NCBI RefSeq assembly: GCF_055900595.2
Contig: NZ_CM148325.1
DNA: 64,000 bases
Direction: 5' to 3' (one strand)
The stretch's first letter is position 1. Each line of letters opens with the position of its first letter. The position numbers were made by a program. This document shows positions 6,001 through 9,000 of the stretch, piece by piece.

Positions 6001-9000
6001 ACCTGAACGCGATTTGAATCAATATCAGCCAGTTAAGAACAACTAGAATAGTGGCATTTGGCATGCAACTTAACGGACTGGCAAAATCATGGCAGAGAAA
6101 AGAAGAACCCGCTGGCAGCGGCGGCCAGGCACGACGGGCGGCAAATTACCGTGGAATGACTGGCGCAATGCCACGACCTGGCGTAAAGCGACGCAATTAT
6201 TACTGTTGGCAATTAATATTTATATTGCCATCACGTTCTGGTATTGGGTGCGCTATTACGAAACGGCAGGTAGTACGACATTTGTCGCCAGGCCAGGAGG
6301 CATCGAAGGCTGGCTACCGATTGCCGGTCTGATGAATCTGAAATATAGCCTTGCAACAGGCCAGTTACCGTCCGTCCACGCCGCCGCGATGCTGTTATTG
6401 GTCGCTTTTATCGTCATCAGTCTATTACTAAAAAAGGCCTTTTGTTCATGGTTATGCCCGGTTGGTACGCTTTCTGAATTCATCGGCGATCTCGGTAACA
6501 AACTGTTTGGTCGGCAATTTGTCCTTCCCCGCTGTCTGGATATTCCTCTGCGCGGCGTGAAGTATTTGCTGTTGAGTTTTTTTCTCTATATCGCGTTATT
6601 GATGCCCGCTCAGGCTATTCACTATTTTATGTTGTCGCCCTACAGCGTGGTGATGGACGTTAAAATGCTCGATTTCTTTCGTCATATGGGGACCGCGACA
6701 TTAATCAGCGTGACCGTTTTGCTGATTGTCAGTCTGTTTATTCGCCATGCCTGGTGTCGTTATCTTTGCCCATATGGCGCGCTGATGGGCGTGGTTTCGC
6801 TATTGTCGCCGTTTAAGATTCGTCGCAATGCCGAAAGTTGTATCGACTGTGGCAAATGCGCAAAAAATTGCCCATCGCGGATCCCGGTCGATAAATTAAT
6901 TCAGGTACGAACCGTGGAATGTACCGGTTGTATGACTTGCGTAGAGTCATGTCCGGTAGCCTCAACATTGACCTTTTCACTGCAAAAACCTGCGGCAAAT
7001 AAAAAAGCCTTTGCGTTGTCTGGCTGGTTAATGACGCTACTGGTTCTGGGGATTATGTTTGCGGTGATTGGTTACGCAATGTATGCGGGAGTATGGCAAA
7101 GCCCGGTGCCGGAGGAATTGTACCGACGCTTAATTCCGCAAGCGCCAATGATTGGTCACTAAATTAGCAACAAGCGGAACATCACCTCGCACGGGGTGAT
7201 GTTCACAAAATCACATTATTTTGATTTTGACATCATAGCTTTCAAGCCCGGTCATTTTTTCTCGTGCGGTGAAGCGAATTTCAGAGACTTCTTTCCCTGT
7301 ATTCTTGTTCAGCTCGGCGATTTTTTGCGCGATAAAGTCAGCGATTTCCGTTTCGGCTTGTTTTTTTAACTCTTCAATATTCACTGTTAACCTCTTCTGG
7401 TCTTAAAAGACAGCAACACGCCAGTAAGGTGTTGGTTCCCGGTCCCCTGGTCAGGTAAGAAATGTTATAAGCCATCTCCCCGAAAGATTCAATAATCAAC
7501 AGGTTATCGCTTACTATACATACAGCGTTGAAGAAAAATAAGGCAGATATAAAAAAGGCTCCACGAGGGAGCCTGATCTTATTTTGTGAAATCCAGCGGC
7601 GCATGGTCAGTGCGTATTTGCAGCGCGACGTTATCAAAGGTGATCATCGTCGATTTACAAAAAATACACTTTGCCCCTAAAGGATTTCGCTCCGTCACAT
7701 CGAATGCCGATGTGCGGTACTGTGAACCATGACAACATGGACAGCGGAAATGGAGATGTTGAGTAATAACGGCAACCTTAGAGCGTAACAACGTTCGCTG
7801 CCGCGGGACCACGTTGCCCCTGCTCAATAGAAAATTCAACTTTCTGATTTTCGTTCAGCGTGCGGAATTCATTGCTCTGGATGGCAGTGAAATGGACGAA
7901 AACGTCTTTGCTGCCATCATCAGGAGTGATAAAGCCAAAACCTTTATCTGCGTTAAACCATTTTACTAAACCAGTCATTTTATTAGACATATTTTACTTC
8001 CTTCATTTTGGGCCTTTCGGCAAACAGGGCTTTAATACAGAAACTACTTAGTGTTCAGGAGAGAGACTCAAAAGAAGGGGATAATGCCTGATAATGAGAA
8101 CTGCTTTAGTAAACTACTTTGTATGCTGTCTGTCTTTCAAACCGACGCAGCTATTAACGCATGATAATTGAGATTAAGCAAATTTTATTTTAGCCGTCCG
8201 GCGGTCTTAAATATCGCTGGCTTTATTTTATTAACCCCGTATAGTGCAGCGCAGTATTTTCAGTAAGGAATTTGTTTGTCCCGTAAAATGACAGGAATTG
8301 TCAAAACCTTTGATCGCAAAAGCGGCAAAGGATTCATTATCCCCTCCGACGGTCGTAAAGAAGTCCAGGTCCATATTTCCGCATTCACTCCCCGCGATGC
8401 AGAAGTGCTTATACCAGGATTACGCGTGGAATTTTGCCGCGTAAATGGCCTGCGTGGACCAACAGCGGCAAATGTTTATCTCTCTTAATATGACGCTGCT
8501 TGTTTAAAACTGACTGGTTTTATTGGAATAGATTAATAGTCAACACTACACATTATAACGCAAGTTACTTTTTCATCAAGAAACTAATACATTTGACCGA
8601 ATATCTCTGTACCTAATAGTTATAAACGCCACTTAACAGCCGGTTATAGTACCATTTGAAACTATATTACCAACAATAGTTAATAGCTTTCTCAACAATT
8701 TTCTTATCTTTAATTTATATTTTTCTAAGATTTATCTTATGCCCACGAGTCGTATTTCCAGAGGGAAATCGTTAACAATCCTATATTTCCCTCTGCGCGC
8801 CTTTCCTACCCGCAGTATATAGTGCAAGCGGTATGAGGAAAGGGAGATTTCACAAGGATGTTATACTCAAAGTAGATAATTCTGATCTCAAGCGTACGTA
8901 TTGTCCATGCGATGAATAAAGGAAAAGTTATGAAACACAAGTTTTCTGCAATCCTTATGGCCTTCATGTTGACGACGCCAGCTGCGTTTGCTGCACCAGA

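Follow-up and report, generated by a model that had tools for sequence, protein, structure and literature searches.

An ordinary Rho-independent terminator of the cspG–ymcF operon lies inside the annotated ymcE reading frame

One of the closest known systems to the cspG locus is found in the Qin prophage of Escherichia coli K-12, where the gene order cspI–ynfQ–[terminator/ynfR]–ynfN–gnsB matches that of the cspG locus. The Qin hairpin, AAGGCUCC-UUCG-GGAGCUUU-U, is of the same type and starts 5 nt past the stop codon of the YmcF paralogue, and an annotated small ORF, ynfR, runs through it in the frame that is equivalent to ymcE relative to the 3′ arm. ynfR has only 21 codons and starts 2 nt past the ynfQ stop, which is good for reinitiation, and after cold shock the tagged 21-residue YnfR has been observed experimentally; read-through of such a terminator, and translation across it, can therefore happen. 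At the cspG locus itself, GnsA and YmcE are listed as a toxin–antitoxin pair by Pfam (PF08178/PF15939) and in toxin–antitoxin reviews, the primary paper being Wei et al. (2015). In array studies at 15 °C, a 5-fold increase of cspG was accompanied by a 2.3-fold increase of the ‘ymcE’ signal, which implies that some transcripts cover ymcE, and overexpression of ymcE from an ASKA clone has a small effect on butanol tolerance. No mention of ymcE or ymcF was found in the Weaver preprint, nor was a mention found in the SMRT-Cappable-seq supplement.

We analysed a window of 64,000 nucleotides (contig NZ_CM148325.1 of assembly GCF_055900595.2), in which all of the features described here lie on the minus strand. 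The cspG transcription start site (TSS) in published Cappable-seq data, U00096.2 position 1,050,528, corresponds to window position 8146, and this coincidence validates the U00096.2 coordinate offset. The promoter-proximal 5′ UTR (7991–8146) is of the cspA thermoregulator type, as indicated by Rfam and Cappable-seq; the match to Rfam RF01766 extends over 7724–8146 with 161 bits (gathering score, 78). It is followed by the 70-residue cspG coding sequence (7778–7990), which is supported by the ORF list, the NCBIfam equivalog NF007378 (179 bits) and the RefSeq annotation. The roughly 200 nt that separate cspG from the hairpin discussed below are occupied by a second gene that the initial annotation had missed: ymcF (7579–7767, 62 residues), the ‘cold shock small protein YmcF’ of RefSeq, which matches Pfam PF23641 with 166 bits. 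It starts with AUU 10 nt past the cspG stop and encodes a zinc-ribbon-like CPCC…CIFC pattern. YmcF is found across the Enterobacteriaceae, in more than 137 protein clusters, and 21 residues are invariant among 26 genera-level sequences. In eight Escherichia representatives, the variable sites of ymcF fall 5/4/25 on the three codon positions; ymcF and gnsA are intact in all eight, and cspG is intact in the seven that cover it. A second csp–ymcF–gnsA module was not found in the window.

The ymcF stop codon (TAA, 7581–7579) is followed after 4 nt by the stem-loop (7556–7574). A script re-check of the geometry gave a 5′ arm AGGCUCC (7574–7568), a loop CUCGU (7567–7563) and a 3′ arm GGAGCCU (7562–7556), i.e. 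a 7 bp stem with five G–C pairs and a 5 nt loop. The U6 run occupies 7556–7551; its first U pairs with A7574 and the base that follows, 7550, is A. The GC hairpin with the core ggctcc/ggagcc and T6 on the minus strand, as originally described, can thus be read directly from the sequence, and its placement was accurate as well: the claimed distances of about 200 nt from the cspG stop (TAA, 7780–7778) and about 30 nt into the 5′ end of the 76-codon ymcE ORF were measured as 204 nt to the onset of the stem and 30 nt from the ymcE ATG (7604), and the stem-loop spans ymcE codons 11–18 (RLPRGAFF). The predicted folding energy is −14.4 kcal mol−1 (z = −3.6), and none of 200 shuffled sequences folded equally well. 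A role for the inverted repeat on the plus strand was considered and rejected; the tail in that direction, GATCTTATTT, is poor and there is no convergent gene end nearby: yccM ends beyond the gnsA 3′ hairpin, at a distance of 400 nt.

Published Term-seq data place RNA 3′ ends exactly at this hairpin. The supplement of Adams et al. (2021) lists 3′ ends on the plus strand of NC_000913.3 at 1,051,900 and 1,051,901, which correspond to window positions 7551 and 7550 (the map between NC_000913.3 and the window was checked on the starts of cspG, ymcE and gnsA), so that the U-tract and the 3′ ends together occupy 7550–7556. These ends are present in two of the three condition tables, with a Rho score of 0.51, a ‘No’ for Rho dependence and an intrinsic terminator score of 8.09. 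The Term-seq check proposed by the initial annotation is thus answered by Rho-independent ends that had already been mapped. The same table labels the 3′ end as ORF-internal, inside ymcE, a class that arises because the annotation runs ymcE through the terminator.

The stem is invariant across the eight Escherichia representatives. Among 23 homologous hairpins no pair is broken, and two pair positions show double compensatory changes (A–U to U–A and U–A to C–G); the pairs were counted by a script anchored on the U-tract and not from the MAFFT alignment, in which the 5′ arm was off by one base in some rows. Most of 41 csp–ymcF loci have a stem-loop and T-tract no more than about 10 nt from the ymcF stop, and where csp-adjacent loci have a terminator, the stop-to-stem distance is in most of them short, mostly about 1–10 nt. 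Kosakonia and Siccibacter have unrelated stems at the corresponding position after ymcF, and Raoultella has a stem-loop and T-tract after ymcF although no csp gene lies directly upstream. It is therefore the structure and not the sequence of the terminator that is kept in relatives, by compensatory pairs and by non-homologous hairpins in other genera. Because its stem begins just 4 nt past the ymcF stop codon, this is the intrinsic terminator of the cspG–ymcF operon. The earlier reading of it as the cspG terminator was right as to the function and needs amending as to the transcript, since what it ends is the bicistronic cspG–ymcF message and not cspG alone. The hairpin and U-tract (7550–7574) are an ordinary Rho-independent terminator that has been mapped experimentally before. 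In this reading, transcription of the cold-shock operon starts at 8146; the transcript comprises the cspA-type thermosensing leader followed by cspG and then ymcF, and it ends on the U-tract, 4–30 nt past the ymcF stop.

Past the terminator lies a fast-evolving spacer with indels (7493–7549) in the alignment of the eight Escherichia; positions 7549–7511 have 44% variable columns and a 2 nt indel, and form the most variable stretch of the locus. The gnsA promoter (7464–7492) then follows, with a −35 hexamer TTGAAT (7492–7487), a 17 nt spacer and a −10 hexamer TATAAC (7469–7464). A simple promoter scan did not find this promoter, because the −10 hexamer ends in C; it was recovered by comparative alignment and confirmed by published TSSs. 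The hexamers are kept at fixed spacing from Escherichia to Citrobacter while the spacer sequence diverges, and none of 37 promoter sites is polymorphic in 13 E. coli. Cappable-seq lists TSSs at U00096.2 1,051,218 (score 74.8, window 7456) and 1,051,226 (score 12.4, window 7448). The major TSS, A7456, is locally dominant, lies 8 nt past TATAAC and within ymcE codon 50, and has a score about eightfold that of the cspG TSS. The gnsA 5′ UTR (7385–7456) accordingly has 72 nt from A7456 (A7448 being the minor start) to the GTG, with the Shine–Dalgarno sequence AGAAGAGG, and contains a leader block CTGGCGYGTTG…AGACCAGAAGAGGT that is conserved into Citrobacter. A structured leader was considered and discarded, as the leader is predicted to be unstructured (z = +1.3). 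The gnsA coding sequence itself (7211–7384, 57 residues, GTG start) matches Pfam PF08178 with 122 bits, has variable sites at 7/1/19 by codon position in the eight Escherichia and is followed by a 3′-end hairpin (7172–7200) at which Term-seq lists a ‘primary’ 3′ end (1,052,279, window 7172). gnsA has its own σ70 promoter (TTGAAT-17-TATAAC) about 95 nt past the terminator and a 72 nt leader from 7456.

The annotated 76-codon ymcE ORF (7374–7604) begins within the 3′ end of ymcF, continues over the terminator and spacer and then over the promoter and 5′ UTR of gnsA, and overlaps the gnsA coding sequence by 11 nt, an overlap that had been reported correctly from the outset. Its ATG sits 26 nt inside ymcF with no Shine–Dalgarno site ahead. 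Compared with more than 137 clusters for YmcF, searches of 5.8 billion proteins gave only 28 for YmcE, all from Escherichia or Shigella except for one partial sequence labelled Salmonella. Of the eight Escherichia representatives, four have lost the ATG, two have in-frame stops and two have a 1 nt frameshift of ymcE into the gnsA frame; the Citrobacter loci keep just 6–46 codons of the ymcE frame open upstream of gnsA. The ymcE frame is thus lost in relatives in which the hairpin pairs are kept, which is the outcome of the frame-against-hairpin comparison that the initial annotation had suggested. Variable sites in ymcE are distributed 13/8/10 by codon position (χ2 p = 0.54), with no third-position bias. 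Within 13 E. coli, the ratio of polymorphic codons with only synonymous changes to those with amino-acid changes is 1:9 for ymcE versus 19:4 for its neighbours (Fisher p = 1.6 × 10−4); the synonymous-site variation in favour of translation that had been put forward as a possible sign of a real gene is not seen.

It had also been supposed that ymcE might be transcribed from its own promoter across the terminator. This is unsupported: Cappable-seq lists no plus-strand TSS between U00096.2 1,050,610 and 1,051,169, the ymcE ATG being at 1,051,070, and thus no start in the ∼460 nt upstream of the ATG; the strong local TSS (74.8) in codon 50 serves gnsA. The suspicion that ymcE is not a genuine protein-coding gene is borne out by the lost ATG, the stops, the frameshifts, the flat codon positions and the neutral-like 1:9 ratio, which stop short of proof because the paralogous Qin terminator is read through in the cold. 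We consider it very likely that the locus consists of a cspG–ymcF terminator and a separate gnsA promoter, with the ymcE frame overlying both and under no protein constraint. ymcE would be a chance open frame across the 3′ end of ymcF, the terminator, the spacer and the gnsA promoter and leader, and its sequence conservation is due to the nucleotide-level elements underneath and not to a protein. Citrobacter and the Qin prophage still have a ynfN-like gene separating ymcF from gnsA, and the ymcE ORF may have arisen in Escherichia after the loss of such a gene. We infer that any synthesis of YmcE is negligible; judged on comparative sequence data, ymcE is probably an annotation artefact and at best an unconstrained young ORF.

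Of the other explanations, the one that survives best is that the terminator acts as a conditional gate, with antitermination by Csp proteins in the cold, or the ribosome finishing ymcF, letting transcripts from the cspG promoter reach gnsA. Such a gate would not conflict with the main explanation; it would be a regulatory addition to it, in which cold induction supplements the promoter that gnsA already has. CspA-family proteins reportedly act as antiterminators (Bae et al. 2000), and the output would be relevant in the cold, as GnsA raises unsaturated fatty acids. The 4 nt between the ymcF stop and the stem, a distance that is short in most csp-adjacent loci having a terminator, is also in its favour, as is the cold-shock-induced YnfR of Qin, which requires the paralogous hairpin to be read through. 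The cold rise of the ymcE array signal alongside cspG would fit too, but the ‘ymcE’ probe overlaps the 3′ end of ymcF, so its induction need not mean read-through. No antiterminator or attenuator fold was found in a 136 nt fold, where the terminator forms alone and the upstream helices leave its arms free, and Rfam gives no cis-regulatory match over the hairpin. As gnsA has a strong independent promoter and no alternative antiterminator structure is predicted, we regard the gate as possible but doubtful. If it were true, read-through transcripts would allow ymcE to be translated, as with the 21-residue YnfR at the Qin terminator. The fuller analogy, a leaky cold-responsive gate that couples the membrane-fluidity regulator gnsA to cold shock together with ymcE as a translated E. 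coli-specific proto-gene, seems improbable; if correct, the proto-gene would have been born of terminator, promoter and leader sequence after the loss of a ynfN-like gene.

Less likely still is that YmcE is a real protein of very recent origin, confined to E. coli, which would be either a small membrane protein or an antitoxin to GnsA and would be translated from read-through transcripts of the cspG promoter. Almost every complete E. coli genome does carry the ORF with its ATG intact (the L003 allele, with its stop, is present in only five of 5,414), and dedicated Pfam (‘YmcE_antitoxin’) and NCBIfam (equivalog) models exist; these models, however, derive from the E. coli sequences themselves, and the 1:9 ratio indicates that purifying selection is lacking even inside E. 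coli. The cold-associated rise in ‘ymcE’ RNA, translation of the paralogous YnfR across the paralogous hairpin and the small butanol-tolerance effect of the ASKA clone all count for such a protein, but the main promoter lies inside ymcE and its start lacks a Shine–Dalgarno site. For the antitoxin in particular, the toxin–antitoxin listing stands against the distribution of the genes: a broken ymcE coexists with an intact gnsA in E. whittamii, Escherichia sp. E1V33, E69 and L003, gnsA or gnsB is intact where ymcE is absent (Citrobacter and Qin gnsB), and in O157:H7 it is gnsA that is frameshifted while ymcE is retained. An essential antitoxin role is hard to reconcile with an intact gnsA that lacks an intact ymcE.

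It is very unlikely that a stable small RNA acting in trans, an E. coli counterpart of Salmonella STnc220, is derived from the 3′ UTR and ends at the hairpin. Rfam RF02077 (STnc220) matches two Salmonella loci (L013 and L022) at the orthologous position with 102 bits, a full score, over the 3′ end of ymcF and the hairpin, and the window has a sub-threshold match at 7541–7621 (31.4 bits, E ≃ 0.001). That match lies under the gathering score of 60, so the window sequence is not a member by the Rfam criterion; most of the matched stretch consists of ymcF codons whose third positions vary, and no paper among those searched mentions STnc220 or a function for it. The two resemble each other in position, in the last ∼40 nt of ymcF, in the hairpin GCUCC…GGAGC and in the U-tract; the terminator alone explains the match, and the STnc220 family itself seems to represent the 3′ end of an mRNA and not a small-RNA gene in its own right. 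That the hairpin is a functionless chance inverted repeat is scarcely credible: a loose terminator scan of the window does give a count near that of shuffled sequence (five sites versus 4.5), but a strict scan (stem of at least 7 bp, at least five G–C pairs and at least six U in eight) gives six sites on both strands of the 64 kb versus 0.13 ± 0.34 in 30 dinucleotide shuffles, the stem covaries and is conserved in position, and the RNA 3′ ends mapped at the hairpin already refute this reading.

The terminator is itself an ordinary and largely known feature, with its 3′ end already in a published Term-seq table; the importance of the locus lies in its annotation. YmcE figures as an antitoxin or a cold-shock protein in Pfam, NCBIfam, toxin–antitoxin databases and modelling papers, and PGAP spreads the name to thousands of genomes. 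The evidence indicates that the ymcE ‘gene’ is a terminator, a spacer and the gnsA promoter and leader read in one frame. The GnsA/YmcE toxin–antitoxin assignment is best treated as unsupported, and phenotypes of ‘ymcE’ deletion or overexpression likely reflect altered cspG–ymcF termination or gnsA expression. More generally, ORF-internal 3′ ends in Term-seq catalogues can stem from spurious ORF calls.

Set against known systems, the locus resembles a type II toxin–antitoxin operon in that two small ORFs overlap, the upstream one (ymcE) extending 11 nt into the downstream one (gnsA). It differs in that both a promoter and a terminator lie inside the supposed antitoxin, which is absent or broken in relatives that retain gnsA and shows no coding constraint. 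Co-transcription is contradicted by the major TSS at ymcE codon 50, the active terminator at codons 11–18 and the lack of an upstream TSS, and co-occurrence by gnsA without an intact ymcE in four Escherichia lineages, ten Citrobacter loci and Qin gnsB. Compared with the 21-codon ynfR, ymcE has 76 codons, starts inside ymcF rather than just past its stop, lacks a Shine–Dalgarno site and covers the gnsA promoter, over which it reaches because the ynfN-like gene is missing at the cspG locus. The terminator, by contrast, agrees with canonical E. coli intrinsic terminators in its G+C-rich 7 bp stem, 5 nt loop and U6 tract, in an RNA 3′ end at the last U of the tract or one base further, in its Rho independence and in its position just past the last stop codon of the operon. 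There is no mechanistic difference from these; what is unusual is that the stem begins merely 4 nt past the stop codon and that an ORF, ymcE, has been annotated across it.

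The hairpin within the annotated ymcE frame (7374–7604, minus strand) is almost certainly real and ordinary: the intrinsic terminator of cspG–ymcF, which has already been mapped. The locus is cspH / cspG / ymcE / gnsA / yccM of E. coli, reversed in the window; K-12 is 98.8% identical and strain RMDEC465 99.7%. Read on the minus strand, the 5′ arm AGGCUCC (7574–7568), preceded by GAUC, pairs across the loop CUCGU (7567–7563) with the 3′ arm GGAGCCU (7562–7556); the first U of the U6 run (7556–7551) pairs with A7574, and an A follows the run. The stem starts 204 nt past the cspG stop and 30 nt past the ymcE ATG (7604). 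On re-reading the sequence, everything that the initial annotation said of the hairpin, its U tract and these distances was correct, as was the 11 nt overlap of ymcE with gnsA. The folding energy is −14.4 kcal/mol (z = −3.6; equalled by none of 200 shuffles), and a 136-nt fold contained no competing antiterminator. Strict criteria gave six terminator sites in the 64 kb window, against 0.13 expected from dinucleotide shuffles; the others, in full, are at 27943–27963 (+), 39698–39715 (both strands; a perfect bidirectional terminator), 42770–42788 (+) and 62544–62563 (+).

Window positions (w) were converted to K-12 as NC_000913.3 position = 1,059,451 − w, and this map agrees with where cspG, ymcE and gnsA are annotated to start. 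Term-seq (Adams et al., 2021; PMC7815308 supplementary tables) places one 3′ end on the base past the U-tract, window 7550 (1,051,901 (+); LB at OD 0.4, mean 4,284 reads), and another on the last U of the tract, window 7551 (1,051,900 (+); a second condition, 10,359 reads). The site scores 0.51 for Rho ('No') and 8.09 as an intrinsic terminator, values of ≥3.0 denoting intrinsic termination. The published label 'internal, ymcE, +54' arises because ymcF is missing from the annotation used. A further 3′ end lies within the cspG coding sequence (+130; window 7860, minus strand; NC_000913.3 1,051,591) in one growth condition, the same one in which no ymcF terminator 3′ end is listed.

According to the ORF list, an 86-codon frame occupies the stretch from cspG to the hairpin, and its last 62 codons are ymcF (7579–7767, minus strand), the 'cold shock small protein YmcF' of RefSeq, starting 10 nt past the cspG stop. 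YmcF is a full-length match to Pfam PF23641 and is found Enterobacteriaceae-wide in more than 137 protein clusters, nearly all of 62 residues, with the invariant motif F-x-C-P-x-C-H-G-S-Q … N-P-x-G-A-K-x-I-F-C-K. Its variable sites in eight Escherichia representatives fall 5/4/25 at codon positions 1/2/3 (chi-square p = 4e-6). ymcF is a genuine gene, and its terminator would be expected where the hairpin lies. The initial annotation had proposed a possible cspG terminator; Term-seq confirms the termination, but the unit terminated is cspG–ymcF, since the ymcF TAA lies 4 nt upstream of the stem.

A YmcF-profile scan of one genome per species gave 80 loci, at 41 of which a csp gene ends ∼10–13 nt before ymcF; most of these 41 have a stem-loop and T-tract within about 10 nt of the ymcF stop. 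One hairpin type is common to Escherichia, Citrobacter and Salmonella, with no broken base pair across 23 copies, among which the basal stem pair switches from A-U to U-A and the fifth from U-A to C-G, the U-G intermediate also being present. In the eight Escherichia representatives the stem and U-tract are invariant and the two variable positions are both in the loop. Unrelated stems stand at the equivalent position in Kosakonia, Siccibacter and Raoultella, in the last of which no csp gene lies directly upstream of ymcF. The terminator is conserved in position while its sequence turns over. Against Rfam STnc220, the end of Salmonella ymcF with its hairpin reaches 102 bits and the window element only 31 bits; the latter is a diverged homologue of this entry, which Rfam files as an sRNA candidate.

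In Enterobacter, Lelliottia and Leclercia (comparison loci L063–L081), ymcF without an upstream csp gene is usually without a terminator after it, and a conserved block, ...(C)ATAACAGTTAGC(A/T)AAATCTTCTCTTTTTCTCCTGCTGATATACACT..., lies 10–70 nt past its stop. In a Shigella-wide YmcE variant (protein P0011; 135 contigs) the N-terminus is replaced as far as the loop of the hairpin, giving MPHSPEKEPVSCLTDWHY-PRGAFF... (compare window 7563–7604), which suggests an insertion or rearrangement that removed the 5′ arm of the terminator; E. coli genome H8 has an IS1 within the same interval.

The ymcF start codon (7765–7767 in the window, minus strand) is ATT at 37 of the 41 csp-adjacent loci, ATC at three and ATG at one, and an AAGG/GAGG Shine–Dalgarno-like motif 10 nt upstream overlaps the csp stop codon. 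Where ymcF stands alone, with a CAGGAGA site of its own, it starts with ATG in 30 of 40 cases. The conserved AUU start is tied to translational coupling with the cold-shock gene, a situation resembling that of infC with its IF3-based discrimination.

As for ymcE itself, which the initial annotation thought might not be genuine, comparative analysis makes it very likely a spurious annotation, at best an ORF restricted to this lineage and free of constraint. Among 5.8 billion proteins YmcE forms 28 clusters, many of them truncations or YmcF/GnsA fusions, confined to Escherichia/Shigella save for one partial labelled Salmonella. Its ATG is kept in four of the eight Escherichia representatives (the window, K-12, E69 and E. 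whittamii) and replaced by AGG or ATA in the rest. After −2 and −1 indels E69 meets four in-frame stops, locus L003 has a TGA at codon 54 from a 6-nt deletion, and E. whittamii and Escherichia sp. E1V33 run into the gnsA frame through a 1-nt deletion. None of the eight has a broken ymcF (AUU start) or gnsA (GTG start), nor is cspG broken in any of the seven whose contig includes it. In Citrobacter the equivalent frame ahead of gnsA stays open for 6–46 codons only. Variable sites in ymcE fall 15/13/13 by codon position (13/8/10 excluding overlaps, chi-square p = 0.54); those of gnsA fall 7/1/19 (p = 9e-5, eight representatives). Across 13 E. coli genomes ymcE has one synonymous-only and nine amino-acid-changing codons, giving eight protein variants, versus 4/0 in cspG, 9/3 in ymcF and 6/1 in gnsA (Fisher p = 1.6e-4), and no Shine–Dalgarno-like sequence occurs in the 25 nt preceding its ATG. 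On the other side, almost every complete E. coli genome has the ORF intact, the L003-type allele being present in 5 of 5,414. Such integrity is to be expected in any case at 1–2% divergence, and a good part of the ORF lies over a constrained promoter and leader.

Past the terminator, the spacer (7549–7511, minus strand) has 44% of columns variable and a 2-nt indel among the eight Escherichia, and the block upstream of gnsA (7510–7385, minus strand) has 9.5%, versus 15.5% for the gnsA coding sequence. Aligning Escherichia with ten Citrobacter loci gave two conserved elements separated by divergent sequence. The first, TTATTGAAT – 17 nt – TATA(A/G)N, is in the window the gnsA −35 TTGAAT (7492–7487) and −10 TATAAC (7469–7464; both minus strand); the second, CTGGCG(Y)GTTG…AGACCAGAAGAGGT, which extends into the gnsA start codon, is its Shine–Dalgarno region. 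Cappable-seq (Ettwiller et al., 2016; PMC4782308, U00096.2) has two start sites here, 1,051,218 (score 74.8) and the minor 1,051,226 (score 12.4), which correspond to A7456 and A7448 using the U00096.2 to U00096.3 offset of +777; the offset is validated by the cspG start site (1,050,528, U00096.2), which lands exactly on window 8146, where the Rfam cspA-thermoregulator match has its 5′ end. A7456 is 8 nt past TATAAC and 72 nt ahead of the gnsA GTG, within ymcE codon 50. The list has no plus-strand start site between 1,050,610 and 1,051,169, a span that takes in the ∼460 nt ahead of the ymcE ATG. From the −35 to the start site, all 37 positions are monomorphic across the 13 E. coli genomes. DirectRNA-seq coverage does not drop (569 downstream of the terminator versus 468 upstream), consistent with independent gnsA transcription. 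The last ∼55 nt of the leader (7385–7440, minus strand) are invariant across the eight representatives, the flanking coding sequences being less conserved, and are predicted to be unstructured (z = +1.3) despite this conservation. gnsA is annotated as frameshifted (1-nt indel), with ymcE kept, in an O157:H7 strain and strain 26_141088 (L093, L094 667–839; window ∼7367); a published survey found GnsAB_toxin in only 6% of ST11 isolates.

YmcE is described in the literature and databases as the antitoxin of GnsA; this reading fails on the three features tested, namely where the promoter lies, whether antitoxin and toxin occur together, and coding constraint. One hypothesis is that the terminator could be conditional, either through a ribosome halting 4 nt short of the stem or through Csp antitermination. 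On an array at 15 °C the 'ymcE' signal rose 2.3-fold and cspG 5-fold, and the array literature calls ymcE a 'cold shock gene'; the 'ymcE' probe overlaps ymcF. A recent preprint credits the sfa (ymcE) suppressor paper and Sugai et al. (2001) for the effect of gnsA overexpression on unsaturated fatty acids.

The paralogous module of the K-12 prophage Qin reads cspI – ynfQ (the YmcF paralogue) – ynfR – ynfN – gnsB. Several Citrobacter loci retain the end of a ynfN-like ORF (…SEEILEAA…) between ymcF and gnsA, which Escherichia lacks; its deletion would have brought terminator and gnsA promoter to within ∼95 nt of each other, with one frame remaining open over both. The name ynfQ is used for a 37-aa ORF between ydfJ and ydfK by VanOrsdel et al. 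(2018; PMC6001520 Table 1), and in RefSeq (b4724) for the 62-aa YmcF paralogue adjoining cspI. ynfR (L082 2189–2254, minus strand) has 21 codons, starts 2 nt past the ynfQ stop and spans the paralogous cspI–ynfQ hairpin AAGGCUCC-UUCG-GGAGCUUU-U. SPA-tagged YnfR was detected with strong cold-shock induction (VanOrsdel et al., 2018); transcripts therefore pass the Qin terminator in the cold, which implies cold-dependent read-through and reinitiation just after the ynfQ stop. Read in frame, the hairpin gives KAPSGAF in YnfR, in parallel with RLPRGAF in YmcE.
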